The notes under the pieces were generated by a model. The model was not told the origin of the DNA. It searched no databases and saw nothing but the letters and a program-made list of their open reading frames with translations. A stretch of 64,000 bases of DNA from Clostridia bacterium. Lineage in GTDB: Bacteria > Bacillota > Clostridia > TANB77 > CAG-508. Positions 27,225 to 49,533 of this stretch are shown one piece after another (within the stretch, counting starts at the first letter, position 1; each line of letters opens with the position of its first letter). The stretch spans positions 150,516 through 214,515 of the forward strand of contig JAZUKI010000003.1 of the NCBI GenBank assembly GCA_045643205.1. The letters are read 5' to 3'. Made by a program: the position numbers and the translations under genes.

Positions 27225-28658
27225 ATGGAAACACAAAAAACTAATTGGATTGAAAAACTTTTATGTTTAATCATAATACTATGTCCAATTCTAGATTGTG
27301 CAAGTTTCATTTTTAGAAACTTTTTTCAAACAACAATCTCAGTTTCAACAATAATAAGACCAATAATTCCACTTTGCTTATTACTATACATTTTTATCAA
27401 AGGAAACAAAAAAGAAAAAATAATACTAGCACTAATTGCTTTAGCATACATAGGCTACGCAGTTGTGCATTTATTAATATACAATAGTTTTCACACAGGT
27501 TGTTCATTTGGCGACATCAAACTTGAAATGCAATATGTTTTCAATTTCTCATTCATAATGATTTACTTCATCGTATTTGCATTCTTGTTTTTGAAAAAAG
27601 ATTTAGCAACAGACAAGCTCTACAACTCAATTACAATCATGGCAACAATCTATATTGTATCAATTGTTCTTGCAATCATAATGGGACAATCATCACACAC
27701 ATATATAGAAACATCAACAGGCTACAAAGGTTGGATAGAATCAGGCAACAGTCTAAGTGCAATTTTAATCACTTCACTATTTATGATGTTACAACGTGCA
27801 CGAGAAAACAAAATCACAATAGTTGTTATCTTAGCAGTAGGAACATATTTAATAACAACTATCGGAACAAGAACAGGACTATTAGGAACTTTTATTGCAG
27901 TAGGCTTATACATATTACTTGAAATGTTCTTCAGCAGAAACAAAAAAATAATCATCTCAGGACTAACATTAATGTGTGTTGCAATTTTAGTAGTTGTTTT
28001 TGCAGGATCAAAAACAATTCAAAGAAGACAACAAATGGCAGAATCGCAATACACAATAATTGATGAAGCAACAGGCGAAGTAGGAAACATGACAGGAGAC
28101 ATGTTAAGAATCAAAAATAAAATTCTTAATAACGAACTTGAAGAAGACTTTATGTCAGAAGCACAAAAGCAGTCAGTACTTGACCTACACGAATACACTA
28201 AATCAATAAAATTAGCAGGAAATGATACACGAACACAACAATTAATGTACAACATTTACTTAATGAAAAATCAACATAGTTTTACAGGAATAGTATTTGG
28301 AAACGGATACAACAACAACGTTAGAGAAATGAGAATGGAAAACGAATTAGCATCATTGTTCTTAAACTTTGGATTATGTGGATTCATACTATATGCAGGA
28401 CCATTATTAGCAGTTCTTGTTTATGCAATTATTTTTGGAATAAAACGAAGAAAAGAAATTTCATTAAACTATGTAATGAATGTTTGTGCATTAATTTTAG
28501 CAATCAGTTTATCATGGTTATCAGGCTATGTACTATTTGCAACATCAAGCATGACAGTCATAGTTGTAGTTGCAACATTGTTATTGAAAGAAATAAAAAG
28601 AATTAAAGATAATGAAAATAAAGACAAGAAAATTAAAGACAATAAAAGCCTAGATTAG
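27225..28658 (+). CDS. O-antigen ligase / Wzy_C family polytopic membrane protein
   Basis: About 10 TM helices. Large loop with HSFTGIVFGNGY ... ENELASLFLNFGLCGFI, resembling the Wzy_C H...GxGxG...E..G signature. Confidence 0.55.
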   Translation: METQKTNWIEKLLCLIIILCPILDCASFIFRNFFQTTISVSTIIRPIIPLCLLLYIFIKGNKKEKIILALIALAYIGYAVVHLLIYNSFHTGCSFGDIKLEMQYVFNFSFIMIYFIVFAFLFLKKDLATDKLYNSITIMATIYIVSIVLAIIMGQSSHTYIETSTGYKGWIESGNSLSAILITSLFMMLQRARENKITIVVILAVGTYLITTIGTRTGLLGTFIAVGLYILLEMFFSRNKKIIISGLTLMCVAILVVVFAGSKTIQRRQQMAESQYTIIDEATGEVGNMTGDMLRIKNKILNNELEEDFMSEAQKQSVLDLHEYTKSIKLAGNDTRTQQLMYNIYLMKNQHSFTGIVFGNGYNNNVREMRMENELASLFLNFGLCGFILYAGPLLAVLVYAIIFGIKRRKEISLNYVMNVCALILAISLSWLSGYVLFATSSMTVIVVVATLLLKEIKRIKDNENKDKKIKDNKSLD

Positions 28659-28716
28659 GTAGCACATCAAATTTAACTATTCATAAGATATAATTTATTA
28701 AAAGGAATGTGGTTAT

Positions 28717-30000
28717 ATGATTACTGTAATAAAAAATGGAACTGTTATTTCAATGGATGAAAAAAGAAATGAAAAATATGAAGTATTAGATATCGTTTTT
28801 AAAGATGATATCATAATTTCAATGTGCTCAAATTACGACGGACCATATGATAAATTAATTGATGCTAAAAATAAAATTGTAATGCCTGGGCTAGTTAATA
28901 CACATGCACACTTGGGAATGGCAATGTTTAGAGGCATTAATGACTACGAAGACTTCAATGGTTGGTGGGGCAACATGATTTTACCTTATGAAAAGAAATT
29001 CACCGATAAAGAAGTTTATTTAAACACTTTATATTCATGTATAGAGATGATAAAAACCGGAACAACTACTGTATGTGATATGTACTTTAATAAAGATGGC
29101 ATAATGAAAGCTGTAAAAGAAGCAAAGGTTAGAACAATGTTCCCATTATATTTCATTGGTGACTATGATAAAGAAACTTTTGATGATGCAGAAAATTATT
29201 ATTTAAATAATAGAGATAATGATTTAATAAAATTCTATGTTTCTATGCATAGTTTGTATACATGTTCTGAAAGATTAGTTGCTGAATGCAAAAATTTTGC
29301 AGATAAGTACAATCTATTATTTGGAACTCATTTTTGCGAACATGATAGCGAATTAAATACAATAGCTGATAAATATAATATGAAACCAGTTAAAGTTTTA
29401 GATAAATACAAATTATTAGATAATAAACTTAGTTTAGCACATTGCACTCATATAAGCGATGAAGAACTTGAAATGTTTAAGGGGAAAGATGTTTCATTTA
29501 ATCATTGTCCAATTTCAAATTTAAATCTTGGTTGCGGAATTGCTGATATTCCAAAGTATATGAAACATGGAATAAATATATCTTTAGGAACTGATGGACA
29601 AGGTTCTGGTAATAATATGAATATGTTCTATACAATGTCACTTGTAGACTATATTCAAAAAGGAATATATAAAGACACAAACATATTAAAAAGTTATGAC
29701 GTTCTTAAAATGGCAACAATAAATGGTGCTAAAGCTTTAGGAATGGAGCAAGAGATTGGATCATTAGAAGTTGGTAAAAAGGCAGATATTATTATTGTTG
29801 ATTTAAACAAATTTGAAACATATCCTTATAGAGATTTGTTAGTAAGTATTGTTCATAATGTATTACCACAAAACATAGATACAACAATTATTAATGGAGA
29901 AACATTAATGCAAAATCATGAATTACTGCTTAATGTAGATGAAAATAAATTGATGGACAGAATGGATGAGATGGATAAGGAATTGAAGGAAGGAAAGTAG
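28717..30000 (+). CDS. mtaD: Amidohydrolase, 5-methylthioadenosine/S-adenosylhomocysteine deaminase-like
   Basis: MPGLVNTHAHLGMAMFRG metal-binding HxH motif, TGTTTVCDMY, and C-terminal KKADIIIVDL, typical of MtaD-type amidohydrolases. Confidence 0.75.
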   Translation: MITVIKNGTVISMDEKRNEKYEVLDIVFKDDIIISMCSNYDGPYDKLIDAKNKIVMPGLVNTHAHLGMAMFRGINDYEDFNGWWGNMILPYEKKFTDKEVYLNTLYSCIEMIKTGTTTVCDMYFNKDGIMKAVKEAKVRTMFPLYFIGDYDKETFDDAENYYLNNRDNDLIKFYVSMHSLYTCSERLVAECKNFADKYNLLFGTHFCEHDSELNTIADKYNMKPVKVLDKYKLLDNKLSLAHCTHISDEELEMFKGKDVSFNHCPISNLNLGCGIADIPKYMKHGINISLGTDGQGSGNNMNMFYTMSLVDYIQKGIYKDTNILKSYDVLKMATINGAKALGMEQEIGSLEVGKKADIIIVDLNKFETYPYRDLLVSIVHNVLPQNIDTTIINGETLMQNHELLLNVDENKLMDRMDEMDKELKEGK

Positions 30001-30305
30001 AAAGAAAATTAAAACATTTTATTTTGAGCAATGTAATTTTAATTCAAACATAGTAGATACTATAATGCATATAAAGTTTTGTTAAAATATATTTTATTCA
30101 TAATGTGATGGTATAATAAACAATAGAATGCTGTACAGCAAGATTTATCAAGGACTTTCGGGTTCTTGATTTTTTTATGAATTAAAAAAACGGCGAAAAA
30201 ACGGCGGAAGTTTTTTAGATTGAAAAATTGGTAAAAATTACAGTGTAAATTTCGTGCTGTATTTGTAGTAATGGGAGATTTGTTTTTTGAGAAAAAAGTA
30301 GTAAA

Positions 30306-30884
30306 ATGTCCATAGAAAGGACAATTGGGATGCAGAAAAATTTTAAAAATAATTTAGAAACAAAATATAATGATATATTTAAGAACTTATATGCACAATG
30401 GAAGTTACAAAGTAAAAAGAAATATGAAGAATTACAGTCAAATGGATTAGCTAATAGTGGAGTAGGTTCAAAAGCTATGTACATATTAATGGAAGAATTA
30501 ATAAATAAAGCGATATTTGATTTGCAACAGCTATTTAATAAGCTGCCAACAGAATATAATAGAAAGATATCATTTAAAGATTTAGACGAATATAAAAGAA
30601 AAACAATAACTAATGTTGTTGGACATATTAATAATATGGAAAAAGAACTTAAACGTGAGTACAAGGAAAAGTTACTATTTATATCTGAATCAAATGAAAT
30701 ATCTTTAAACAATCTAAGTGAAAATTCTAAAGATAAAATTGAAAAGTTATTTGCTGAAATAGCTAATTTGAGAAAAGGTAAAAAAATAGAAGGGTTAGTA
30801 ATATTTAATATAGTATTTACAATATTAAGTTTTTTGATAGGAATTGCAAGCTTGATCGTAGGAATAATTGGAATTGTACAATAA
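30306..30884 (+). CDS. Hypothetical tail-anchored protein (helical N-domain, C-terminal TM helix)
   Basis: ORF only. The C-terminal 35 aa are hydrophobic. Lies at the proximal edge of the defence island. Confidence 0.35.
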   Translation: MSIERTIGMQKNFKNNLETKYNDIFKNLYAQWKLQSKKKYEELQSNGLANSGVGSKAMYILMEELINKAIFDLQQLFNKLPTEYNRKISFKDLDEYKRKTITNVVGHINNMEKELKREYKEKLLFISESNEISLNNLSENSKDKIEKLFAEIANLRKGKKIEGLVIFNIVFTILSFLIGIASLIVGIIGIVQ

Positions 30885-31010
30885 TTACCAATATTTAAAA
30901 TGCAGAATATTAAACAGGTATGAATATGTAGAAAATAATTAAAAAGAATTGGTCAGTAGAAAATACTGGCTTTTTTGTTGTAAAAAAATAAAGAAATTTA
31001 TTTTGAAGTG

Positions 31011-31070
31011 TTGTAAAAAGTTAAACAAATTGTTAAAATATAAATGTAATATGTAATATTACAAATTACA
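31011..31070 (+). promoter_or_regulatory. Promoter (TTGTAA-17-TAAAAT) plus 26-bp near-perfect palindromic operator upstream of the HTH/hsd operon
   Basis: TGTAAT-a-TGTAAT-ATTACA-a-ATTACA at 31045-31070; 24 of 26 positions are self-complementary. Confidence 0.5.
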
Positions 31071-31089
31071 AAAAAGAAAGGGATTATGA

Positions 31090-31410
31090 ATGAGTGAATT
31101 TAGTAAATTTCTGTCTCAGAAAATAGATGAGCATAATTCAATAAGGAAAAGAAGCATACGAGAATTTTCCAGAGAAATTGGAATATCACATGATTATTTG
31201 AGAAGAATAATTAGCGGAAAAGTTATAGCACCAGAACAGGAAATTCAAGAGAAAATAGCAAGTAAAATTCTTAAAGAAAATGAATATCAAACATTTTTTG
31301 ATTTAGCGGCAAAGGATAGAGGAGAAATTCCTGTAGACATACAGAAAGAATTATCAAAAGAAAGCAATAAATGGAATGAAATAAGAAATATGTTGGAGGT
31401 AGAAAAATGA
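31090..31410 (+). CDS. XRE-family HTH DNA-binding protein (controller-like), co-transcribed with hsdM
   Basis: HTH segment IREFSREIGISHDYLRRIISGK. The stop overlaps the hsdM ATG (ATGA). Confidence 0.6.
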   Translation: MSEFSKFLSQKIDEHNSIRKRSIREFSREIGISHDYLRRIISGKVIAPEQEIQEKIASKILKENEYQTFFDLAAKDRGEIPVDIQKELSKESNKWNEIRNMLEVEK

Positions 31411-33152
31411 GTACAAATATAAATGCAAAGGCAAATTTAATATGGGAAGTGGCAACAAAATTAGTTGGGGTATATAAACCACATGAATATGGTAAAGTAA
31501 TTTTACCTATGACAGTCTTGAAAAGATTTGATGATATATTAAAACCAACTAAACAAGCAGTATTAGATAAATATGAAGAAGTAAAAAATTTTGAAGTAAA
31601 AGAAGCTTTTCTAACTGAAGCTTCAGGTTATAGTTTTTATAATACAAGTAAATACGATTTTGAAAAAATATTATCTGATCCAGATAATATTGAAAGTAAT
31701 TTTAAAAATTATTTAAATGGATTTTCAGATAATGTAATAGATATTTTAAGTAATTTTAAATTCAATAATGAAGTAAAAACAATGGCTGATAATAGACTTT
31801 TATATGTTGTTATAGAAGAATTTAATTCTAAAAAAGCATATATGGGATTAGATGAAATTAAAACAGAAGATATGGGTTACATATTTGAAGAATTAGTTAG
31901 AAAATTTTCAGAAAGTTATGATGAAGAAGCAGGAGCTCACTTTACTGCAAGAGATATTATTTATTTAATGACTGATCTACTAGTTGCAGAAGAACAAGAT
32001 ATTTTAACTAATGATAATAAGGTAAAAACAATATATGATATGGCAATGGGAACATCTCAAATGCTTGCATGTATGACTGATAGATTACATCAATTAAATA
32101 AAAATGTTAAGGTAGATTGTTATGGACAAGAATTAAATCCAGAAACATATGCTATAGCAAAAGCAGATATGCTTATAAAAGGTGGAGATGCAGATAACTT
32201 TAAACAAGGCGATACATTAGATGATGATCAATTTAAAGGATATAAATTCGATTATATAATTTCAAATCCTCCTTTTGGTATCGATTGGAAAAAACAAAAG
32301 AAAGCAGTAGAAGATGAAGTATCAAAAGGAGAACACGGAAGATTTCCAGTAGGAACTCCTAAAATATCAGATGGGCAAATGTTATTTACTTTAAATGGAA
32401 TTGCAAAATTAAAAGATGACGGAAAGATGGCAATAATCCAAAACGGTTCTCCATTATTTTCAGGTAGTGCTGGTTCAGGAGAATCAGAAATTAGAAGATA
32501 TATTATAGAAAATGATTGGTTAGAAGCAATAGTTCAATTACCAACGGATCTATTTTACAACACAGGAATTTCAACATATATTTGGATAATTAATAAAGGT
32601 AAAGAAGGAACGATTAGAGAAGGAAAGGTTCAATTAATAGATGCGTCAAATTGTTACATAAATAGAAGAAAAAATATTGGTAATAAAAGAAAAGATTTAG
32701 ATGAAGAATCAAGAAAGCTAATTTTACAAGCATATTCAGAATTTACAAACAAAGAATATAGTGAAAATGATAAAAAAGTAGAAAGTAAAATTTTTAATAA
32801 TAACGATTTTGGATTTAATAGAATTACTATTGAATCACCAGAAGTTGATGAAAATCAAGTTGCTATATTAGATAAAAAAGGAAATGTAAAAGCTGATTCA
32901 AGTAAAAGAGATTATGAAAATGTACCTTTAAAAGAAGATATAGAAGAATATTTCGAAAAAGAAGTATTACCATATAATGAAAAGGCTTGGATAGATAAAA
33001 AGAAAACACAAGTAGGGTATGAAATACCATTTACAAGATATTTTTATAAATATGTGGCTCCAGAAAATTCAGATGATATATTAGCAAGAATTAGGCAAAA
33101 TGAATCAGATATTATGGATTCTCTAAAAAAAATATTTGAGGAGGATAAATAA
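31407..33152 (+). CDS. hsdM: Type I restriction-modification system methyltransferase subunit HsdM (N6-adenine)
   Basis: HsdM N-terminal domain, motif I DMAMGTSQML, motif IV NPPFG (IISNPPFGIDW). Confidence 0.9.
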   Translation: MSTNINAKANLIWEVATKLVGVYKPHEYGKVILPMTVLKRFDDILKPTKQAVLDKYEEVKNFEVKEAFLTEASGYSFYNTSKYDFEKILSDPDNIESNFKNYLNGFSDNVIDILSNFKFNNEVKTMADNRLLYVVIEEFNSKKAYMGLDEIKTEDMGYIFEELVRKFSESYDEEAGAHFTARDIIYLMTDLLVAEEQDILTNDNKVKTIYDMAMGTSQMLACMTDRLHQLNKNVKVDCYGQELNPETYAIAKADMLIKGGDADNFKQGDTLDDDQFKGYKFDYIISNPPFGIDWKKQKKAVEDEVSKGEHGRFPVGTPKISDGQMLFTLNGIAKLKDDGKMAIIQNGSPLFSGSAGSGESEIRRYIIENDWLEAIVQLPTDLFYNTGISTYIWIINKGKEGTIREGKVQLIDASNCYINRRKNIGNKRKDLDEESRKLILQAYSEFTNKEYSENDKKVESKIFNNNDFGFNRITIESPEVDENQVAILDKKGNVKADSSKRDYENVPLKEDIEEYFEKEVLPYNEKAWIDKKKTQVGYEIPFTRYFYKYVAPENSDDILARIRQNESDIMDSLKKIFEEDK

Positions 33153-33153
33153 T

Positions 33154-34458
33154 ATGAGAGAAATGAAAAAAACTAATTCTATGTGGGTTGGAAATATTCC
33201 TAAAGAGTGGAACTTAATAAAGACAAAAAAAATTATAAATTTTATTAATGGTTATGCTTTTGATAGTAATAGTTTTAGTGATAATGGAATATATCCAGTA
33301 ATAAGAATAGGAGATTTAAGTAATGGAAGGATTAATTATGAAAATGCATGTAAAGTAAATGATAATGAAAATTTAAACAATTATAAAATAATAAAAAATG
33401 ATTTATTAATTGCAATGAGTGGAGCTACAGTTGGAAAATTAGCTATAGAAAATGAAGCAAATATTGAAGCATATATAAATCAGCGTGTAGGAATTTTAAG
33501 ATGTAAATCTAAAATAAATAATAAGTTTCTATATTATTCATTAAATACAGATGAATTTATAAAATATATATTATTTCAGTCAATGGGTTCGGCTCAACCA
33601 AATGTATCTTCAGAAAATATAGGAAATTATTATATTTCTTGCCCGACAATAGAAGAACAAGAAAAAATAGTAAATTTTCTTGATAATAAAATAAAAGAAA
33701 TTGATAATGTAATAGAAAAAACAAAAGAAACAATTGATGATTATAAGAAATACAGACAAACAATTATAACCGAAGCAGTAACTAAAGGGTTAAATAAAAA
33801 TGTTAAATTTAAGGAAACTTTTAATAAAGTAATTGGAATGATACCAGAAAGTTGGAATGTTCAAAAATTAAAAACATTTATCAGTATGCCTGTAATAGAT
33901 GGACCGCATGAAAGTCCTATATTATTAGATGATGGAATTCCATATATATCTGCGACAGCTATAGAAAATGGAAAAATTAATTTTGATTTAATGAGAGGAT
34001 ATATTTCAGAAGAATACTGTGAACAATGTGAGGTTCGATATAAACCTAAAATTAATGATATTCTTGTAATAAAATTAGGAGCGACTACAGGTCAAGTAGC
34101 CATAGTTGATACTGATAAAAGATTTAATATTTGGGTTCCATTAGCTGCGATCAGATGTAATGAAATAGTTAATTCTAAATATATTTATTATAGTTTTCAG
34201 TCACAAAGTCTAATTAAGCAGATGGAGTTAATGTGGACTTTTGGAACACAGCAAACGTTAGGAGTGAAAAATATAGAACAATTATATTTTTCTTTACCAG
34301 ATAAAGAAGAGCAGAATACTATTGTTCAATATTTGGAAAAAAAGTGTTTAGATGTGGACAATTTAATTTCTAACAAAGAAAAAATTGTAGAGAAATTGGA
34401 ACAATACAAAAAATCGCTTATATATGAATATGTAACAGGAAAAAAAGAAGTAATTTAG
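33154..34458 (+). CDS. hsdS: Type I R-M specificity subunit HsdS (two target-recognition domains)
   Basis: ATG at 33154 after a GAGGAGG RBS (the track's 33136 start is TTG). Two TRD repeats, each followed by the conserved coiled-coil spacer. Confidence 0.85.
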   Translation: MREMKKTNSMWVGNIPKEWNLIKTKKIINFINGYAFDSNSFSDNGIYPVIRIGDLSNGRINYENACKVNDNENLNNYKIIKNDLLIAMSGATVGKLAIENEANIEAYINQRVGILRCKSKINNKFLYYSLNTDEFIKYILFQSMGSAQPNVSSENIGNYYISCPTIEEQEKIVNFLDNKIKEIDNVIEKTKETIDDYKKYRQTIITEAVTKGLNKNVKFKETFNKVIGMIPESWNVQKLKTFISMPVIDGPHESPILLDDGIPYISATAIENGKINFDLMRGYISEEYCEQCEVRYKPKINDILVIKLGATTGQVAIVDTDKRFNIWVPLAAIRCNEIVNSKYIYYSFQSQSLIKQMELMWTFGTQQTLGVKNIEQLYFSLPDKEEQNTIVQYLEKKCLDVDNLISNKEKIVEKLEQYKKSLIYEYVTGKKEVI

Positions 34459-34470
34459 GGGGCAAATTAC

Positions 34471-37400
34471 ATGGAAGAAAACGAAAAAAGATTTGAACAA
34501 GATATAGAAACATATCTTTTATCAGAAGATGGTGGATATACTAAAGGAAAGCCAGAAGATTTTGATAGAGAATCTGCATTAAATAAAAAAGATTTATTTA
34601 AATTTATAGAAGATACACAAAATAAAGAATGGAACAGATATAAAACTGCTTTTCCAGATGATTATGAATTAAGATTTATAAAAAGATTTAATGAAGAAGT
34701 TGTAACTCGCGGAATAATTGATGTAATAAGAAATGGAATTACAGATAGAGGGTTTAAATTTAAACTTGCATATTTTATGCCAGAAACAAATTTAGCGCCT
34801 GAAACATGGGATTTATACAATAAGAATATTTTAAATGAAACAAGACAATTAAAATATTCTACACAAAATGAAAACTCTGTGGACATAGTTTTACTATTAA
34901 ATGGAATTCCGGTAGTGGCTCTTGAATTGAAAAATCAAATAACTGGGCAAAATAGTGAAAATGCACAAAAGCAATTTATGTATGATAGAGATCCTAGAGA
35001 AGCCATTTTTAGATTTAATAGCAGAATAATAGCCTATTTTGCAGTAGATCATTATGATGTTAAATATACTACAAAACTTGCAGGAAAAGATACATATTAC
35101 TTACCATTTAATCAAGGTTCAAATGGAGCGGGAAATGTAGGAGGAGCAGGAAATCCGACTAATGAGAATGGATATACAACAGATTATTTATGGAAAAATG
35201 TTTTAAAGAAAGATTCTTTAATGGAAATATTACATAAATTTGTTCATTTACAAGTTAAAGAAGAAGTTTCACATCGTGGTGAAAAAGAAATAATAAAGAA
35301 AAAAGAAAATATTATATTTCCAAGATTTCACCAATTAGATGTTGTAAGAAAGTTAATATGGAATGTAAGAGATTGTGGAGTTGGACAAAAATATTTAATA
35401 CAACATAGTGCGGGATCAGGAAAATCGAATAGTATAGCTTGGCTTGCACATAGACTATCAGGATTACACGATAAAGATAATAACGCGGTATTTAATTCAA
35501 TTATAGTTGTTACAGATAGAAAAGTATTAGATAAACAATTACAAGAAACAATCTATCAATTTGAACATCAAAAAGGTGTAGTTGTAAAAATTGATGATGA
35601 AAAAACATCAAAAGATTTAAAAGATGCTATTAACGATGGAAAAAGAATTATTATAACAACATTGCAAAAGTTCCCTGTAATATATAAAGATGTAGATGAT
35701 ATGGGACATAAAAGATTTGCTGTAATAGTTGATGAAGCTCATTCAAGTCAAACAGGAAATTCTGCAAAAAAATTAAAAATTGCATTAGCAGATAAAGAAG
35801 AAGCATTAAAGAAATATGCGGAAATGGAAGCTCTTGCAGAAGAAAATGAAAAAGATTATGAGGATAAAATAGTAGAAGAATTAGCAACACATGGACCACA
35901 AAATAATATTTCATTCTTTGCTTTTACTGCAACACCTAAATCTAAAACCTTAGAATTATTTGGTACAAAACAATATGATGGAACATTTAGACCATATCAT
36001 GTTTATAGTATGAGACAAGCTATAGAAGAAGGATTTATCTTAGATGTATTAGCAAATTATATGACATATAAATCAATTTACCAAATAGCTAAAAATACAC
36101 CAGATAATCCAGAAGTACCAGAAAATTATGCTACAAAAGCAATAAAGAAATTTGAAAGTTTACATGAGATAAATATAACTCAAAAAACACAAATAATAGT
36201 GGAACAATTTAGAAATGTTACTAAAAATAAAATTGGTGGAAGAGGAAAAGCAATGTTAGTAACAGCATCTAGATTACATGCTGTTAGATATTTCTTTGAA
36301 ATTAAAAGATATATAGAAGAAAAAGGATATGATGATTTAGATGTTTTAGTAGCGTTTTCAGGAGAAGTTCATGATGGTGGACAATCTTTTACAGAAAGTG
36401 GAATGAATAAAACAAAAGATGGAAAGAAAATATCTGAATCACAAACAAAAGAATATTTTAATTCGGATGAATTTAGTATTTTAGTAGTTGCAGAAAAATA
36501 TCAAACAGGATTTGATGAACCACTATTACATACAATGTTTGTAGATAAAAAATTAAAAGGAATAAAAGCAGTACAAACATTATCAAGATTAAATAGAACA
36601 TGTAATGGAAAAGATGATACTTTAGTAATAGATTTTGTTAATGAAGCTCAAGATATACAAGAAGCATTTAAACCATTTTATGATGTTACAGTATTAGAAG
36701 AAGAAACTAATCCAAATGCAATATATGATAAACTAAATATGATAAAAAGTTTTGGATTAATTTATGATGAAAATATAGAAAAATTCTGTAAGATTTATTT
36801 AAAGAATGGAAAACAAAATGAAAATGACTTTGGAAGACTAACAAGTTGCGTTAAAGAAACAGTTGATTTGTATAATAAGCTTGAAATAGAAGATAGAGAA
36901 AGTTTTAGAAAACAAGTAATTAGTTTTAATAAATTCTATTCATATATAACACAAATTACATTTATGGGAGATGAAGAACTTCATAAAACTTATATGTATT
37001 TAAGATATGTTGAAAAATTGTTACCTAAAAATAAAGTAGATACAATAGATTTGGAAGGATCATTAAAATTAACATTTTATAATTTAAAACAAACATTCCA
37101 AGGTAGTGTTTCATTAAGAAAAACGGATGAAGGTGAAGGATTAGTAAAACCTCAAGGATCAGCAATACCAATAGCAGTATTACCAGAGCAAAGATATTTA
37201 GAAGAAGTAATAAGAAAGGTAAATGATTTATATGCTGGACAATTTACAGAATCAGATAATATGCTAGTTAAAAATATTATGGATATAATAATGAAAGATG
37301 ATGATGTAAGACAGAAGGCAAAAGCTAATAGTGAGGATATGTTTGTTCAGTCAGTATTTCCTAAAGTGTTTAGTGAAAAAACAAGTAAAGCATATAAAGA

Positions 37401-37605
37401 AAGTGCAACATCTTATAAAAAATTATTTGAGAGCAAAGAGTTTTATAATGCTATAATGAAGTCATTGGGAAATGTTGTTTATAGATTAATGAAAAGTGAT
37501 GAGACAATTAAGTATAATATTTCAAATGAAGAAGAGGAAAAACTAAAGGTAGCAGAAGATAGTGAAAAATATAATATAAATAACAAGGAGGAGAAAAAAG
37601 GCTAA
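34471..37605 (+). CDS. hsdR: Type I restriction endonuclease subunit HsdR
   Basis: Nuclease motif, then SF2 helicase motifs (QHSAGSGKS, DEAHSSQ, TATPK, QTLSRLNR). 1044 aa. Confidence 0.9.
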   Translation: MEENEKRFEQDIETYLLSEDGGYTKGKPEDFDRESALNKKDLFKFIEDTQNKEWNRYKTAFPDDYELRFIKRFNEEVVTRGIIDVIRNGITDRGFKFKLAYFMPETNLAPETWDLYNKNILNETRQLKYSTQNENSVDIVLLLNGIPVVALELKNQITGQNSENAQKQFMYDRDPREAIFRFNSRIIAYFAVDHYDVKYTTKLAGKDTYYLPFNQGSNGAGNVGGAGNPTNENGYTTDYLWKNVLKKDSLMEILHKFVHLQVKEEVSHRGEKEIIKKKENIIFPRFHQLDVVRKLIWNVRDCGVGQKYLIQHSAGSGKSNSIAWLAHRLSGLHDKDNNAVFNSIIVVTDRKVLDKQLQETIYQFEHQKGVVVKIDDEKTSKDLKDAINDGKRIIITTLQKFPVIYKDVDDMGHKRFAVIVDEAHSSQTGNSAKKLKIALADKEEALKKYAEMEALAEENEKDYEDKIVEELATHGPQNNISFFAFTATPKSKTLELFGTKQYDGTFRPYHVYSMRQAIEEGFILDVLANYMTYKSIYQIAKNTPDNPEVPENYATKAIKKFESLHEINITQKTQIIVEQFRNVTKNKIGGRGKAMLVTASRLHAVRYFFEIKRYIEEKGYDDLDVLVAFSGEVHDGGQSFTESGMNKTKDGKKISESQTKEYFNSDEFSILVVAEKYQTGFDEPLLHTMFVDKKLKGIKAVQTLSRLNRTCNGKDDTLVIDFVNEAQDIQEAFKPFYDVTVLEEETNPNAIYDKLNMIKSFGLIYDENIEKFCKIYLKNGKQNENDFGRLTSCVKETVDLYNKLEIEDRESFRKQVISFNKFYSYITQITFMGDEELHKTYMYLRYVEKLLPKNKVDTIDLEGSLKLTFYNLKQTFQGSVSLRKTDEGEGLVKPQGSAIPIAVLPEQRYLEEVIRKVNDLYAGQFTESDNMLVKNIMDIIMKDDDVRQKAKANSEDMFVQSVFPKVFSEKTSKAYKESATSYKKLFESKEFYNAIMKSLGNVVYRLMKSDETIKYNISNEEEEKLKVAEDSEKYNINNKEEKKG

Positions 37606-37621
37606 AGGAATTATTTATTGC

Positions 37622-38212
37622 ATGACAACAATTGTACCAGGTTTAGTGAAGATAGGAAAAACTGGAAGTGATAATTTTGAACAACGTATGTACAATTTAG
37701 AAAGAAATGGATATGTTAATGTAGTTGGCTTAAAAAGAAGATTTGCAATAGAAGTAGAAGATTATGATGAGAAAGAAGTACTTATACATGAATTATTTTG
37801 TAAAAGTAATGTACAAAACACAGAGTTGTTTGCTATAGATGTCAAACTTGTAGTACAATTATTATCTTCATTAGAAGGAAAGCAAATTTTCCCTAAAACT
37901 ATAACTAAAGAAGAAGTATTTGATATTGCTATAGATGAAAGACAAAAAGATTTTAATAAAAACAATAGAATGTTAATACCAGATGGAAATTATTATATAT
38001 CTGAAAAAAATATTAAAGCTACTATGAAAGTAGAAAATGGCAAATTTATTGTATTAAAAGGAAGCACTTGCCTAGAATGTAATAAAGATTGGATTCCAGA
38101 AGCAAGAAGAATAGCAAAAATTGAAAATGGAATATTAATAGAGGATATAGAATGTAAATCTCCTAGTACAGCAGGTTGGATAGTTTTAGAAAATGCTAAT
38201 AATGATGGTTAA
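37622..38212 (+). CDS. T5orf172 (GIY-YIG-like) plus DUF4357 domain protein, commonly appended to type I R-M operons
   Basis: VKIGKTGSDNFEQRMYNL ... LHELF ... ELFAIDVKLVVQLL matches the T5orf172 pattern. C-terminal tryptophan-containing DUF4357-like segment. Confidence 0.5.
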   Translation: MTTIVPGLVKIGKTGSDNFEQRMYNLERNGYVNVVGLKRRFAIEVEDYDEKEVLIHELFCKSNVQNTELFAIDVKLVVQLLSSLEGKQIFPKTITKEEVFDIAIDERQKDFNKNNRMLIPDGNYYISEKNIKATMKVENGKFIVLKGSTCLECNKDWIPEARRIAKIENGILIEDIECKSPSTAGWIVLENANNDG

Positions 38213-38285
38213 CATGGAAAACTAAAGATGGAAAGAGTATAGATATATTTAGAAATAATAAGTAGTTAAAATAAAGAGCATCATT

Positions 38286-38495
38286 ATGGAAAGAATAATA
38301 TCAAATAAAATTCAATGTAAACATTGTGGTGATATAATTGAATCTAAAAGTATTCATAGTTTTGTAAAATGTAAACGTGGATGTTGTAGTGTTGATGGAG
38401 GACATTATCATTTAAGTCGTTCATATTTTCATAGCCCAGAAGAAGATTTTATAGATTTAAGTGAAGTAGCGGATGATGGTGTAGAAGAAGTTTAA
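38286..38495 (+). CDS. Small cysteine-rich zinc-ribbon protein
   Basis: 69-aa ORF with CKHCG...CKRGCC. Confidence 0.3.
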   Translation: MERIISNKIQCKHCGDIIESKSIHSFVKCKRGCCSVDGGHYHLSRSYFHSPEEDFIDLSEVADDGVEEV

Positions 38496-38640
38496 GTGAA
38501 TAAATTTAAGGTTAAAGATATATTATAATAATTAAAAAAATGTGAGATTTTAGTTATATAAAATCGTAATTGGTACCAAATGTTGTAAAAAACAATAAAA
38601 TAATGTATAATATAATAGGTTTAGTGAAAGTAGGAATAAT

Positions 38641-39261
38641 ATGTTAGCTGAATTGGATATATTATTAGATTCTATAAGGGAACAATATAATCAATTATAT
38701 GCAGAATGGAAAAAAAGTAATTTATATGTTCCATTACACCAAAAAAAGAATCTAGTAAAAGATATAAAAAATAATAATGAAATTCTAAATGCTATATTAG
38801 ACTATAGATTGTTTTTGAATGAAAATCACTTAGATTTAAAAATGACATTTGATAGTTTAAATTTAAAGAGTGAAGTAAATAGTAGAGTAAAAGCACAAAA
38901 CTCAATTGAATTTAAAATAAACAATTATATGACTGCTAAACATGAATATGGTGAAGTTGCAATAAATAAATGTTTTAATGATTTATATGGAATAAGAATA
39001 ATTTTTGAAGATAATGTTGAATATAATGATATAAAGAATTTCATTGATGTAAAATACAAGGGAAAGCTAAAATGTTATGATGCATCTAAAGGAGACTATG
39101 TAGCAACTCATATATATTTTAAAAAAGACAATTATAGTTTTCAGTGGGAACTACAAATATGGGATAAATCACATTATAAATCTAATATTATTTCACATGA
39201 ACAGTATAAACAAGGTTATACAAAATGGGAAGAAGAAAATAAAGGAGGTGAATCATTTTGA
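38641..39261 (+). CDS. RelA/SpoT-like nucleotidyltransferase toxin (toxic small alarmone synthetase, toxSAS-like)
   Basis: Ordered RelA/SpoT synthetase motifs: NSRVKAQNSIEFKI, DLYGIRIIF, DYVATHIYF, FQWELQIWD. Confidence 0.6.
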   Translation: MLAELDILLDSIREQYNQLYAEWKKSNLYVPLHQKKNLVKDIKNNNEILNAILDYRLFLNENHLDLKMTFDSLNLKSEVNSRVKAQNSIEFKINNYMTAKHEYGEVAINKCFNDLYGIRIIFEDNVEYNDIKNFIDVKYKGKLKCYDASKGDYVATHIYFKKDNYSFQWELQIWDKSHYKSNIISHEQYKQGYTKWEEENKGGESF

Positions 39262-40010
39262 CAACACATTATATAATTATGAGTAGTAGTTATTCAAAAG
39301 GAAAGAGGATTGCTTTAAGTAATTTAGTAAAAGAAAAAGATTATCTTGAATTAAGAGAAATAGTCCAAGATATTACTAGTAAATGTGGTAAAGACGTATC
39401 ATTATCTACGCATTTTGTTCAGACTGATTCAGAATCCTGGGAATCAGTTGTTGAAAAAGATCATTTTTTTAAAGGTGTAGAAGTAATAGAAAGTAAAGAA
39501 AAATTTATTGAATTAATTCAAAAAGATAGAACTTTAAAAGGATTGGATGTTGCAAGGTATATACTTTCTAAAGTAAAATGTACACATCTAAAATTAGAAA
39601 AATTAGTATATTTATGTTTTGCAGATTACTTGTGCAAATATGATAAAGAATTATTCGAAGATGAAATTTATGCATATAAGTATGGGCCAGTTGTAGATAG
39701 TGTATATGAAAAATATAAAGGTTCTGGATATAAAGAAATTGAACAAGAAGAAATAGATATAGATATAGATAGTACAGGTATCATGGAAATGCCATCAAGA
39801 AGTAGAATTCTTTTTGTTGAAGATGGTATTGAAAAAATCAAGAGTATAGATGAAACTTTGGAAAAATATGGTGATTTTTCAGCAGGTGATCTTGTAGATT
39901 TAACACATAAGAAACATACTCCTTGGGATATGACAGGAAGAGGAAAAGAGCAATATGGTATTATTAAAAATGATATAATAAAAAAATATCATTCTTATGA
40001 ATGTATTTAA
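39258..40010 (+). CDS. Panacea-domain (DUF4065) antitoxin-like protein, overlapping the toxSAS gene by 4 nt
   Basis: LKLEKLVYLCFADYLCKYDKELFEDEIYAYKYGPVVDSVYEKYKG matches the Panacea core (KLqKLLY...W..GPV...Y). ATGA overlap with the upstream toxin. Confidence 0.6.
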   Translation: MTTHYIIMSSSYSKGKRIALSNLVKEKDYLELREIVQDITSKCGKDVSLSTHFVQTDSESWESVVEKDHFFKGVEVIESKEKFIELIQKDRTLKGLDVARYILSKVKCTHLKLEKLVYLCFADYLCKYDKELFEDEIYAYKYGPVVDSVYEKYKGSGYKEIEQEEIDIDIDSTGIMEMPSRSRILFVEDGIEKIKSIDETLEKYGDFSAGDLVDLTHKKHTPWDMTGRGKEQYGIIKNDIIKKYHSYECI

Positions 40011-40038
40011 AGCCGAGAATTAACTCGGCTTTTACTAT

Positions 40039-40341
40039 TTAATTCAAACTCTCAAAACACCCCATCGCAATTTGGCTTCCATCAACAAACCCATTCCTAT
40101 AATACTTTTCATTCCAATAAGTTATATAATCTAAAAAGTTATCATCAAGTTTATTAAGTTGCTTTTGAACATATTTTTTATTTTCATTAGGTACATTTCT
40201 TAAAATATTTTTAGCTATTTCCTCAAAATAAATCCAATGTTTTTTATCTTCTTCACATGTAAGTGCAGATAAATCTTCCTCTCTATAAGCTATCAATTGG
40301 GCTAATATATCGTTATCATTTACTTCTCTAAAATTACTCAT
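40039..40341 (-). CDS. Hypothetical protein, downstream partner of the TnpV-like gene
   Basis: AGGAGG RBS, then ATG at 40341 (the track's TTG at 40362 lacks an RBS). Confidence 0.4.
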   Translation of the reverse strand: MSNFREVNDNDILAQLIAYREEDLSALTCEEDKKHWIYFEEIAKNILRNVPNENKKYVQKQLNKLDDNFLDYITYWNEKYYRNGFVDGSQIAMGCFESLN

Positions 40342-40355
40342 ATCTAAAATACCTC

Positions 40356-47952: not shown

Positions 47953-48681
47953 ATGAAAGAAGAAGCATGCGGTTTGCATTGCACAAAAATTAAAGACATG
48001 ACAGTCGTTATAGAAGGAAAGAAAATAGTTGATGATGTTAGCTTACATATTCATTGTGGCCAATTAACAATGATCATTGGAAAAAACGGAGCAGGAAAAT
48101 CAACTTTATTAAAAGCAATTCTTAACGAAATTAAGCACACAGGAACTGTGGAATTTGTGGATTTAAAAGAGAAACAACAAAAAAACATCAAGATTGGATA
48201 TGTTCCACAACAACTAAATGTAGAACGCGACATGCCAACAACAGTTTATGATATGTTTGCATCATACATTTCAAACAGTCCAGTTTGTTTTAGAAAAAAT
48301 AAAAAATTATATGAAAAGATAAAAGAAAACTTATCACACTTTGATGCTGATAAATTAATTGATAAAAGAGTTGGAAACTTATCTGGAGGAGAACTTCAAA
48401 GAGTTTTATTAGCAATTGCAACAACACCAATTCCTAACTTATTAATTTTAGATGAACCAGTTTCAGGAATAGATGTAAACGGAATAAAAGATTTCTATGA
48501 AATTCTAGTTAAACTTAAGGATGAGTATGACATGTCGATTGTGCTTGTTTCACACGATTTGAATCTAGTTAGAAAGTTTGCTGACAAAGTAATTTTGTTA
48601 GATAAAAAAGTTTTAAAAGAAGGAAAACCAGAAGAAGTTTTTGAAAGCGAAGAATTTAAAAATATTTTTGGAAACATGTAA
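47953..48681 (+). CDS. znuC: Zinc ABC transporter ATP-binding protein
   Basis: Walker A GKNGAGKST, signature LSGGELQRVLLAIA, Walker B ILDEPVSGID. Confidence 0.85.
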   Translation: MKEEACGLHCTKIKDMTVVIEGKKIVDDVSLHIHCGQLTMIIGKNGAGKSTLLKAILNEIKHTGTVEFVDLKEKQQKNIKIGYVPQQLNVERDMPTTVYDMFASYISNSPVCFRKNKKLYEKIKENLSHFDADKLIDKRVGNLSGGELQRVLLAIATTPIPNLLILDEPVSGIDVNGIKDFYEILVKLKDEYDMSIVLVSHDLNLVRKFADKVILLDKKVLKEGKPEEVFESEEFKNIFGNM

Positions 48682-48693
48682 AGGAGAGAAAAA

Positions 48694-49533
48694 ATGGATG
48701 TAATTTATAATGTTCTTGAAACAATAATGCCGTTTGAATTTATGACATTCACATTTATGAAAAACGCATTTCTAGCAATCATTTTAGTTTCTCCAATTTT
48801 CGCAATATTAGGAACAATGATTGTAAATAAAAAAATGGCTTTCTTTTCAGATGCACTAGGACATTCAGCATTGGCTGGAATTGCAATTGGAATGCTATTA
48901 GGAATAACAAATATAAACATTTCAATGATAATTTTTGCAGTTGTTTTTGCACTATTATTAAATATTATAAAAAGCAAAACAACATATGGTGCTGATACAA
49001 TTATTAGTGTGTTTTCATCAATTGCAATTGCTTTGGGATTAGCAATACTTGCACAAAGCGGAGATTTTAACAAATATTCAAGTTATTTAATTGGCGATAT
49101 TTTAAGTATCAATCAAAGTGAAATTTTATATTTAGTAATAGCATTTGTACTAGTACTAGTTTTCTGGATATTCATGTTCAACAAAATAAATGCAGTTACA
49201 ATTAATCCAGCACTAGCAAAAACAAAGGGAATAAAGACAAAGGTAGTAGATAATATATTTGCAGTTGTAATCGCAATCATGGTTATGATTTCTATTAGAT
49301 GGATTGGAATTTTATTAATTAATTCAATGATGATTCTTCCAGCTGCATCAAGTAGAAATGTTGCAAAGAATATGAGAAGTTACTATGCTTATGCAATTAT
49401 ATTTGGTTTAGTATCAGGAATTGCAGGACTAATAATTTCATACTTTATAAATATACCAACAGGCCCAATGATAGTAATTATACTTGGAATAATTTATTTC
49501 ATTACATTTATTATTAAGAAAGTAAGAAATTAA
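48694..49533 (+). CDS. znuB: Zinc ABC transporter permease
   Basis: 8 TM helices, ABC-3 family permease layout. Confidence 0.8.
   Translation: MDVIYNVLETIMPFEFMTFTFMKNAFLAIILVSPIFAILGTMIVNKKMAFFSDALGHSALAGIAIGMLLGITNINISMIIFAVVFALLLNIIKSKTTYGADTIISVFSSIAIALGLAILAQSGDFNKYSSYLIGDILSINQSEILYLVIAFVLVLVFWIFMFNKINAVTINPALAKTKGIKTKVVDNIFAVVIAIMVMISIRWIGILLINSMMILPAASSRNVAKNMRSYYAYAIIFGLVSGIAGLIISYFINIPTGPMIVIILGIIYFITFIIKKVRN

Follow-up and report, generated by a model that had tools for sequence, protein, structure and literature searches.

A PhRel2-like toxSAS gene paired with a PAD1-PanA antitoxin gene in a strain-specific insertion of a Clostridia bacterium

Two overlapping open reading frames (ORFs) adjoin a type I restriction-modification (R-M) operon in the window, i.e. 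the whole 64,000-nucleotide stretch of Clostridia bacterium DNA analysed here. The original prediction viewed them as a RelA/SpoT-like toxin (toxSAS) and a Panacea-domain antitoxin within a defence island, and left the subfamily and substrate of the toxin open. To which toxSAS system does this pair belong, what would its toxin modify and does it serve defence or its own maintenance? The pair is an intact two-gene module and a real but ordinary addition to a described and experimentally validated class: it very probably forms a type II toxin-antitoxin operon of the PhRel2:ATphRel2 (PAD1-PanA) class (probability of about 0.85). The features on which this reading is built are the following.

38583..38611, + strand: sigma-70-like promoter candidate (TTGTAA-17 nt-TATAAT), in the 145-nt AT-rich spacer 5' of the toxin gene
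38641..39261, + strand: toxin gene, predicted PhRel2-type toxSAS; ORF, ATG start, 206 aa
39241..39250, + strand: Shine-Dalgarno of the antitoxin gene (AAAGGAGGTG), read from the sequence, within the 3' end of the toxin gene
39258..40010, + strand: antitoxin gene, predicted ATphRel2 / PanA; ORF, TTG start, 250 aa, two domains
39258..39482, + strand: PAD1 domain, about residues 1-75; beta-hairpin, helix, strand, helix; pseudo-Zn-finger-like; predicted neutralising element
39594..39926, + strand: Panacea (DUF4065 / SocA_Panacea) domain, residues 113-223; includes the conserved G143-P144-V145 motif
40009..40032, + strand: intrinsic-terminator-like hairpin (AAAGCCGAG-AATTAA-CTCGGCTTT), overlapping the antitoxin stop by two bases; end of the bicistron

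Both ORFs contain the strings by which they had been recognized. In the toxin, these are NSRVKAQNSIEFKI (residues 80-93), DLYGIRIIF (114-122), DYVATHIYF (152-160) and FQWELQIWD (167-175) and, in the antitoxin, the Panacea-core strings LKLEKLVYLCF (residues 111-121) and YAYKYGPVVDSVYEKYK (residues 138-154). The 4-nt overlap between the ORFs was also found, although it reads TTGA and not ATGA as first described: the TTG start of the antitoxin is at 39258 and the TGA stop of the toxin at 39259-39261. This start is supported by the Shine-Dalgarno located 7 nt 5' of the TTG and by related loci, 76/77 of which have a start codon at the aligned position (ATG 64, TTG 9, GTG 3). The distance between the two genes is mostly -8 to +5 nt in related loci, and the location of the antitoxin Shine-Dalgarno inside the toxin gene implies translational coupling. 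The promoter candidate matches at 10/12 positions and is the best of the + strand scan; it is tentative, as promoter-like sites at the locus are not above shuffled expectation (17 found versus 19.9 expected). The hairpin is the sole terminator-like site in 38200-40450, where shuffles expect 0.3, and the T-run 3' of it is weak.

The toxin consists of an N-terminal helical extension (residues 1-71) and a toxSYNTH core (about residues 78-200). Compared with Pfam, as had been proposed, the two proteins behave differently: the antitoxin matches PF13274 well above threshold (70.3 bits for a cut-off of 25.7, E 3.4e-19, profile positions 1-112 of 113), whereas the toxin aligns with positions 1-110 of 113 of PF04607 (RelA_SpoT) at 21.6 bits (E 2.7e-4), below the GA of 27. 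Many toxin homologues at 50-84% identity have a precomputed PF04607 match. A single-sequence PDB search with the toxin gave nothing relevant and NCBIfam gave no match, while the profile of the toxin family matched the FaRel2 structures 8pu1/8pu3/8pu4 (E 8e-8) and the toxin matched phrog_4012 (3e-34). Its AlphaFold model (pLDDT 91.1, pTM 0.86) retrieved FaRel2 first in a Foldseek search against the PDB (E 1e-7), followed by RelQ, RelP and Rel, and all 24 PDB matches with E <= 1e-3 are RSH synthetases. The RSH site residues are all present (R/K/S/K of beta1-alpha4, catalytic D, G-x-R, G-loop Y and E-x-Q). Residues R82, K84, S88, K92, D114, G117, R119, Y153, E170 and Q172 are invariant in 37 homologues and align, in order, to R64, K66, S70, K74, D90, G93, R95, Y128, E145 and Q147 of FaRel2, the set of donor- and acceptor-site residues being taken from PMC11782079. 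FaRel2 R77, which contacts the triphosphate, corresponds to N95.

The antitoxin (model pLDDT 87.6) matches phrog_10390 (1.4e-44); a single-sequence PDB search with it found nothing relevant. Its Panacea domain carries a GPV motif that is functionally important in Panacea (PMC8832971); across 35 homologues, G143 and P144 of this motif never vary and V145 is nearly invariant. The N-terminal PAD1 domain has numerous invariant residues (H4, S9-S11, Y12, G15, R17, C43, G44, D46-S48, T51, H52 and W61). It fits the pseudo-Zn-finger (pZFD) fold of ATfaRel2 and of the CapRel C-terminus; the linear YXXY motif of the ATfaRel2/CapRel type is not evident in it. The general identification of a toxSAS toxin with a Panacea-domain antitoxin is thus borne out by the FaRel2 profile match, the PF13274 score and the homology to phage PhRel2 proteins, all of which greatly exceed what chance would give.

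This last homology leads to the class. A tblastn search of a 2.3-Gb database with the toxin retrieved phage PhRel2 proteins (E 5e-21 to 3e-18), and the best annotated matches are those of GBSV1 (gp12, 34% identity over the full length, 5e-21), Bacillus phage 1 and Paenibacillus phage Lily ('GTP pyrophosphokinase-like', 32% over the full length, 3e-18), the last being named PhRel2 in PMC11782079. In a comparison for which only four reference sequences were assembled, profile scores were 136.6 bits for GBSV1 gp12, 117.8 for Lily PhRel2 and 37 for FaRel2. The antitoxin aligns from residue 1 with GBSV1 gp13 (YP_764469; 39%, E 4e-56) and Lily gp32 (YP_009202238; 36%, E 2e-43), both of which are listed as PAD1 in Dataset S1 of PMC8832971. 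The same dataset places the GBSV1, Bacillus phage 1 and Lily pairs in toxin group T11, with PAD1-PanA and T|A order; T11 (Kurata et al. 2022) also holds the validated PhRel2 pairs of B. subtilis Ia1a and L. animalis (PMC8832971). Best-hit logic and the shared antitoxin architecture therefore suggest that the toxin of the window is PhRel2-like. Nearly all partners of PAD1-PanAs are toxSAS toxins, the toxin being always upstream (PMC8832971), and the toxin of the window is indeed upstream and of toxSAS type. The toxin-first order and the ~95-aa N-terminal extension of the antitoxin, presented at first as oddities, are both real; as the toxin always comes first and the extension is PAD1 in T11, they are hallmarks of the PhRel2:PAD1-PanA class (PMC8832971).

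The pairing holds well beyond this strain. A full-length PAD1-PanA is encoded immediately downstream of the toxin in 80/80 genome loci inspected out of 379 species-level matches, mostly from gut Clostridia; these 379 species-representative loci indicate that the family is common in gut Clostridia, and the toxin of the window belongs to a gut-Clostridia clade. In other genomes, the toxin-PanA pair is an autonomous two-gene unit with unrelated neighbours. Distant relatives are carried on plasmids, where NCBI labels them 'GTP pyrophosphokinase', and others on temperate phages (GBSV1, Lily and other Paenibacillus phages); no plasmid sequence matched 38200-41000 by megablast. None of DUF7695, PDC-S57, HsdMSR, TnpV, the 107-aa ORF and the 606-aa protein qualifies as a third conserved component: none co-occurs with the pair in the 80 loci, where the sole signal is one weak match to the 107-aa ORF. 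DUF7695 is unrelated to the 74-aa ORF located upstream of the pair in a close relative. In Streptococcus phage Javan53, a shorter PhRel2-like gene precedes an 88-aa ORF, which was considered as a standalone PAD1 and discarded, having no BLAST similarity.

Published work on relatives allows a model to be drawn for such a module. The toxin would be a RelA/SpoT-fold pyrophosphokinase (toxSYNTH) that pyrophosphorylates tRNA ends; this would block aminoacylation and stop translation. The antitoxin, whose synthesis is probably coupled to that of the toxin, would bind it by its N-terminal PAD1 and occlude the ATP (pyrophosphate-donor) site, and the C-terminal Panacea may be an accessory, possibly sensory domain. 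The role of the module is the most speculative step: it could be abortive-infection/superinfection defence or plain addiction. Toxicity, tRNA substrate, neutralization by PAD1 and any trigger are all extrapolated from these relatives, whereas what is established for the pair itself is that both ORFs exist, which domains they encode, their fold, the conserved catalytic residues, the strict pairing and the PhRel2:PanA homology.

Regarding the substrate, B. subtilis PhRel2 was seen to pyrophosphorylate the tRNA 3'-CCA end (bioRxiv 10.1101/2024.07.05.602228) and is toxic, its Y173A mutant being non-toxic (PMC7229694). The predicted substrate of the toxin of the window, being that of a PhRel2-like protein (137 and 118 bits versus 37 for FaRel2), is therefore the tRNA 3'-CCA end and not ppGpp or ppApp, so that subfamily and substrate can now both be proposed. 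That the toxin would instead be, as are FaRel of C. marina and Tas1 of P. aeruginosa, a (pp)pApp synthetase that kills by ATP depletion is very improbable. The RelA/SpoT toxSYNTH fold is identical, and the adenine-specifying Glu (E170, i.e. FaRel2 E145) and the G-loop Tyr are common to both activities, but the nearest named relatives, PhRel2 and FaRel2, both pyrophosphorylate tRNA, and neither the tblastn search with the toxin nor the PDB profile search with its family retrieved Tas1 or FaRel. In addition, the N-terminal helical extension carries a conserved basic N-x-K/R-K loop as in the tRNA-binding region of FaRel2, and pZFD-type PAD1 domains go with toxSASs that target tRNA, Tis1-like domains being the neutralizers of (pp)pApp producers (PMC11782079). 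Membership of the FaRel/Tas1 type was rejected on the missing Tas1 match in the PDB profile search and on an antitoxin that is PAD1+Panacea and not Tis1-like/SAH. Even harder to credit is a non-toxic housekeeping SAS of the RelQ/RelP type that would make (p)ppGpp next to a functionally unrelated ORF2: RelQ and RelP are among the structural matches and plasmid relatives bear the NCBI label cited above, yet the RelQ/RelP matches are far weaker than that of FaRel2 (E 4e-5 or worse and TM about 0.4, versus 1e-7), the coupling to PAD1-PanA is strict (80/80) with overlapping or nearly overlapping genes, and the homology to the validated toxic PhRel2 is clear.

The original prediction attributed the antitoxin function to Panacea. 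The Panacea domain is present, but the neutralizing element of the class is the N-terminal PAD1 (PMC10440598, PMC11782079). PAD1 alone neutralizes B. subtilis PhRel2 (PMC10440598; PMC11782079), H52P abolishes its neutralizing activity (PMC10440598) and, in toxSASs that target tRNA, it is the donor site that pZFD/PAD1 antitoxins block (PMC11782079). The reverse arrangement, with Panacea as direct neutralizer as in standalone PanAs and the N-terminal region as a DNA-binding/autoregulatory domain, a function at first proposed speculatively for PAD1 by Kurata et al. (2022), is improbable. It can invoke the many toxins directly neutralized by standalone Panacea domains (PMC8832971), the conserved histidines (H4, H52) and cysteines of PAD1, the lack of HTH in the antitoxin and the conservation of Panacea, the best-conserved part of the pair (median identity of 58.9%, versus 52.5% for PAD1 and 49.1% for the toxin). 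A sensor function is proposed for Panacea in published work on relatives. In 67/70 loci, conservation is higher for the entire antitoxin than for the toxin.

The function of the module for its host is best discussed with its surroundings. The pair is part of a ~12-kb strain-specific insertion, missing from related genomes, which also contains the R-M system and a TnpV remnant; the reading of its location as a variable/defence region next to a type I R-M system is upheld. The R-M operon comprises the following genes.

31090-31410: HTH gene of the type I R-M operon
31407-33152: type I R-M HsdM
33136-34458: type I R-M HsdS
34471-37605: type I R-M HsdR

None of the defence neighbours co-occurs with the pair in the 80 loci from other genomes. 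The 606-aa neighbour gave nothing in a PDB profile search, and its hhalign comparison with the toxin family aligned the donor-site motif alone, with a probability of 11%.

It is possible, if somewhat doubtful, that the module is mainly a selfish addiction/stabilisation cassette for the inserted island and has no phage-defence role. The absence of the insertion from related genomes, its TnpV remnant, the mobility of the pair as an autonomous two-gene unit among unrelated neighbours, the distant relatives on plasmids and the lack of any PADLOC model covering the pair would all be in line with it. Conversely, relatives reside on temperate phages, the related toxSAS systems CapRelSJ46 and Phrann gp29/gp30 defend against phages and the adjacent genes are defence genes (the type I R-M system and PDC-S57). 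An abortive-infection role of the module in the window is nevertheless something that we infer, and phage defence by any PhRel2:PanA pair was not found in the literature searched. A more elaborate proposal, rather unlikely as it stands, is that the whole Clostridial PhRel2:PAD1-PanA clade might be an abortive-infection system in which Panacea senses a phage or host cue and frees the toxin, and in which a divergent N-terminal tRNA-recognition region gives a tRNA specificity unlike that of B. subtilis PhRel2. It relies on Panacea being more conserved than PAD1 and the toxin; if true, it would be the first assignment of a trigger and a sensor function for Panacea.

The locus thus provides one further member, from a low-GC Clostridia-like chromosome, of a toxin-antitoxin class defined in 2020-2024 and dissected genetically and structurally. 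Its practical value lies in annotation, as both genes are usually labelled 'hypothetical', 'GTP pyrophosphokinase' or 'Panacea domain-containing' and PADLOC is silent on both toxin and antitoxin; the locus alone does not advance the questions of the field, i.e. the trigger of PanA-type antitoxins and phage defence by PhRel2.

Among known systems, SocAB, a type VI toxin-antitoxin system in which SocA is a Panacea-domain ClpXP adaptor, shares only the Panacea fold with the antitoxin of the window (NF047745, E 6e-22). Identity with SocA was rejected (78.1 bits, where the equivalog level requires 190); nor is the toxin related to SocB, and there is therefore no basis for a proteolytic-adaptor mechanism. 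CapRelSJ46 and Phrann PhRel (gp29/gp30) are, as predicted for the pair of the window, translation-targeting toxSASs neutralized by a pZFD-type element, and phage defence is proven for both; neither CapRel nor Phrann PhRel was recovered by sequence search with the toxin of the window. CapRelSJ46 is one fused toxSAS-pZFD polypeptide without Panacea, whereas the system of the window has two genes and a Panacea domain. Coprobacillus sp. D7 FaRel2 (PDB 8PU1-8PU4) reaches only 37 profile bits versus 118-137 for PhRel2s; its antitoxin ATfaRel2 is a standalone 74-aa pZFD without Panacea and not a PAD1+Panacea protein, and the specificity of FaRel2, for tRNA-Gly and tRNA-Thr, is narrower than that of PhRel2 (bioRxiv 10.1101/2024.07.05.602228).

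The pairs of GBSV1 (gp12/gp13), Bacillus phage 1 (gp12/gp13) and Paenibacillus phage Lily (gp31/gp32) show end-to-end homology with that of the window (32-34% identity for the toxin and 36-39% for the antitoxin), the same gene order and a spacing of 2-14 nt. They are phage-borne, whereas the copy of the window is chromosomal, in an island without nearby phage structural genes. At 206 aa, its toxin is also shorter than the phage PhRel2s (224-241 aa), lacking a ~20-aa N-terminal tail and a ~10-aa insertion. It is by homology to these phage members of the same T11 group that the pair can be likened to the PhRel2:ATphRel2 of B. subtilis Ia1a and the PhRel2:PanA of L. animalis, in which, as in the window, a toxSAS of ~200-240 aa is encoded upstream of a ~250-aa PAD1+Panacea antitoxin by coupled or overlapping genes.

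As originally predicted, the two genes encode a toxSAS (toxic small alarmone synthetase) toxin and a Panacea antitoxin, a core reading that proved essentially right. Both genes lie on the same strand at the predicted positions, and every peptide string quoted in support was found:

38641..39261, + strand: ORF1, toxin gene (ATG start, 206 aa)
39241-39250, + strand: strong Shine-Dalgarno sequence, AAAGGAGGTG, 7 nt before the TTG of ORF2
39258..40010, + strand: ORF2, antitoxin gene (250 aa)

The overlap, described as ATGA, is actually TTGA: TTG starts ORF2 and TGA (39259-39261) ends ORF1. This TTG start is supported by the Shine-Dalgarno sequence and by the codon aligned with residue 1, which is a start codon in 76 of 77 related loci (ATG 64, TTG 9, GTG 3). 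Most toxin-antitoxin spacings in related loci fall between -8 and +5 nt. At the end of the pair lies a terminator-like hairpin (40009-40032), the sole such site in the region (0.3 expected); a promoter-like match upstream of the toxin gene (38583-38611) is not above chance.

Taken singly, the toxin sequence covers the whole Pfam RelA_SpoT profile (PF04607) but, with 21.6 bits, scores slightly below its threshold of 27 (E 2.7e-4). Database searching identified 228 relatives, nearly all of about 205 aa and many with a precomputed PF04607 match. A family profile built from 37 of them matched only the crystal structures of the toxSAS FaRel2 in the PDB (E 8e-8). The AlphaFold model obtained from the same alignment (pLDDT 91.1) has FaRel2 as its best structural match (E 1e-7), followed solely by the synthetase domains of RelQ, RelP and Rel. 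The residues of FaRel2 that contact ATP, Mg2+ and the acceptor base (R64, K66, S70, K74, D90, G93, R95, Y128, E145 and Q147; PMC11782079) correspond, in order, to R82, K84, S88, K92, D114, G117, R119, Y153, E170 and Q172, none of which varies within the family; the sole difference among the contacts compared is R77, replaced by N95. The toxin therefore looks catalytically competent. Its N-terminal helices are linked by a conserved basic N-x-K/R-K loop (residues 33-36), which recurs in the relatives from phages GBSV1 and Lily and partly in that of Javan53; we suggest that it may correspond to the tRNA-binding K28/R29 of FaRel2.

The Panacea domain of ORF2 was confirmed by Pfam SocA_Panacea (PF13274, residues 113-223, 70.3 bits for a cut-off of 25.7, E 3.4e-19). 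As PHROG 10390 matches residues 31-246 (1.4e-44), the antitoxin family, N-terminal part included, is known from phages. From residue 1 to about 245, the protein aligns with GBSV1 gp13 (39% identity, E 4e-56) and Lily gp32 (36% identity, E 2e-43). Its N-terminal domain is PAD1, a subtype of the pZFD fold (Dominguez-Molina et al. 2024, PMC11782079).

A tblastn search of 50,697 phage genomes with the toxin retrieved full-length matches in Geobacillus phage GBSV1 (gp12, 34%, 5e-21), Bacillus phage 1 (gp12) and Paenibacillus phage Lily (a 'GTP pyrophosphokinase-like' protein, 32%, 3e-18), the next gene in each of the three encoding a 249-aa DUF4065 protein. These three pairs belong to toxin group T11, with PAD1 antitoxins and the toxin gene first (Kurata et al. 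2022, Dataset S1, PMC8832971); T11 also includes the validated PhRel2:PanA pairs of B. subtilis Ia1a and L. animalis and members from C. perfringens and C. sulfidigenes (PMC8832971). The Lily toxin has been explicitly named PhRel2 (Dominguez-Molina et al. 2024, PMC11782079). The family profile scores GBSV1 gp12 (136.6 bits) and Lily PhRel2 (117.8 bits) well above the FaRel2 core (37 bits), and by this sequence comparison the toxin is PhRel2-like rather than FaRel2-, PhRel-, CapRel- or FaRel-like.

PhRel2 of B. subtilis is highly toxic, a property lost in the G-loop mutant Y173A (PMC7229694); Y153 is the counterpart of this tyrosine in the toxin described here. [quoted passage not shown] PAD1 alone neutralises PhRel2; H52P abolishes this neutralisation, whereas a Panacea-interface mutation does not, and a sensory role is hypothesised for Panacea (PMC10440598). 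Where a toxSAS targets tRNA, its pZFD/PAD1 antitoxin occludes the ATP donor site (PMC11782079). T51-H52 is invariant in the PAD1 studied here, and this histidine may correspond to the published H52. For the two proteins identified here, we infer toxicity, tRNA chemistry and neutralisation from these relatives. The following model can be drawn: the toxin would pyrophosphorylate tRNA 3'-CCA ends in an ATP-dependent manner and so inhibit translation, PAD1 would neutralise it by blocking the ATP donor site, and the Panacea domain might act as a sensor.

The pair is an autonomous, mobile two-gene unit. When one genome per GTDB species was scanned, toxin relatives were found at 379 loci, mostly in MAGs of uncultured gut Clostridia, Lachnospiraceae, Oscillospiraceae and Bacilli. 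A full-length PAD1-Panacea protein directly follows the toxin in all 80 loci examined, and no other window neighbour travels with the pair in these 80; in a 76%-identical relative, it sits amid unrelated genes. Run against 1.84 billion representatives clustered at 50% identity, the profile matched 594 proteins with E <= 1e-3, of which 157 reached E <= 1e-30; the scores of the best 150 of the 594 run continuously from 339 to 128 bits, spanning those of phage PhRel2. Plasmids of Bacillus, Streptococcus and Lactococcus carry distant relatives annotated as GTP pyrophosphokinase. In comparison with the window pair, 67 of 70 loci show stronger conservation of the antitoxin than of the toxin (median identity 56.7% vs 49.1%), the opposite of the usual toxin-antitoxin pattern; within the antitoxin, the Panacea half (median 58.9%) exceeds the neutralising PAD1 half (52.5%).

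The surrounding region includes the following genes:

37622..38212, + strand: T5orf172 (GIY-YIG-like) protein, 196 aa, beginning 17 nt past hsdR
38286..38495, + strand: small Cys/His-rich DUF7695 protein, 69 aa (E 6.8e-22), between the T5orf172 gene and the pair
40039..40362, - strand: 107-aa ORF, overlapping the TnpV gene by 7 nt
40356..40727, - strand: TnpV (PF14198, E 2.5e-37)
41047..42867, - strand: RelA/SpoT-like protein, 606 aa, 1 kb from the pair on the opposite strand

The T5orf172 protein very strongly matches PDC-S57, a candidate defence family of PADLOC (E 2.4e-80), and PDC-S14 more weakly; its gene may be an accessory of the R-M operon. The DUF7695 gene was not found beside the pair in the 80 related loci. 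As no transposase or resolvase accompanies it, the TnpV gene is probably a transposon remnant.

The region has ordinary chromosomal flanks, with genes for an O-antigen ligase (27225-28658) and for an amidohydrolase (28717-30000) to its left and zur and znuABC (46562-49533) to its right. In related genomes, homologues of the 606-aa protein lie in the same neighbourhood, at most ~1.2 kb from the O-antigen ligase gene, versus ~12.4 kb in the window (~28700..41047). This gap, where GC content is slightly lower, contains the amidohydrolase, a 192-aa ORF, an HTH gene, hsdMSR, the T5orf172, DUF7695 and toxin-antitoxin genes, the 107-aa ORF and the TnpV gene; neither an integrase nor a transposase was recognised within it. 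It resembles a strain-specific insertion or a variable hot spot. The difference in spacing and the gene content thus uphold the proposed setting in a variable or defence island, but the association of the pair with the R-M operon is not conserved elsewhere.

The SYNTH domain of the 606-aa protein appears to be split: the donor-site motif SARIKSQFSFLGK...NDLFGMKL (residues ~200-235) aligns with the toxin family, the G-loop/E-x-Q part GYRARFIV...EIQLQ (residues ~412-433) matches PF04607 (26.4 bits), and the ~170 aa between them give a weak CARF-like PADLOC match (E 2e-4). This family is rare (15 clusters among 5.8 billion proteins), and no PDB relative was found by sequence. In the three related loci compared, the gene is syntenic but fast-diverging (48-57% identical), its flanks (O-antigen ligase, 417-aa and 199-aa ORFs) being 87-90% identical. 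The neighbouring 407-aa ORF (44716..45939) is just 56% identical to its counterpart, and the HD-domain gene located in these relatives between the 199-aa and 409-aa genes has no match in the window.

Since relatives are carried by phages, and since CapRelSJ46 and Phrann gp29/gp30 are proven phage defence systems, a similar role is plausible for the pair by analogy; a role in addiction is equally compatible with the data.

A stretch of Streptococcus phage Javan53 (1875..2766 of its locus) holds a PhRel2-like gene that differs in being shorter (185 aa) and scores 80.7 bits with the family profile. This gene lies directly 3' of a CI-like repressor gene and is followed, in place of PAD1-PanA, by an 88-aa ORF that has no BLAST similarity to PAD1 and may be a different antitoxin partner. 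As for the window pair, the toxin-first order and the N-terminal extension are both present but are not the peculiarities they had been taken for: the toxin is always upstream at PAD1-PanA loci, and PAD1-PanA partners are almost exclusively toxSAS toxins (PMC8832971). The pair is one more PhRel2:PAD1-PanA system, a class already published, of which every feature regarded as unusual is a hallmark.
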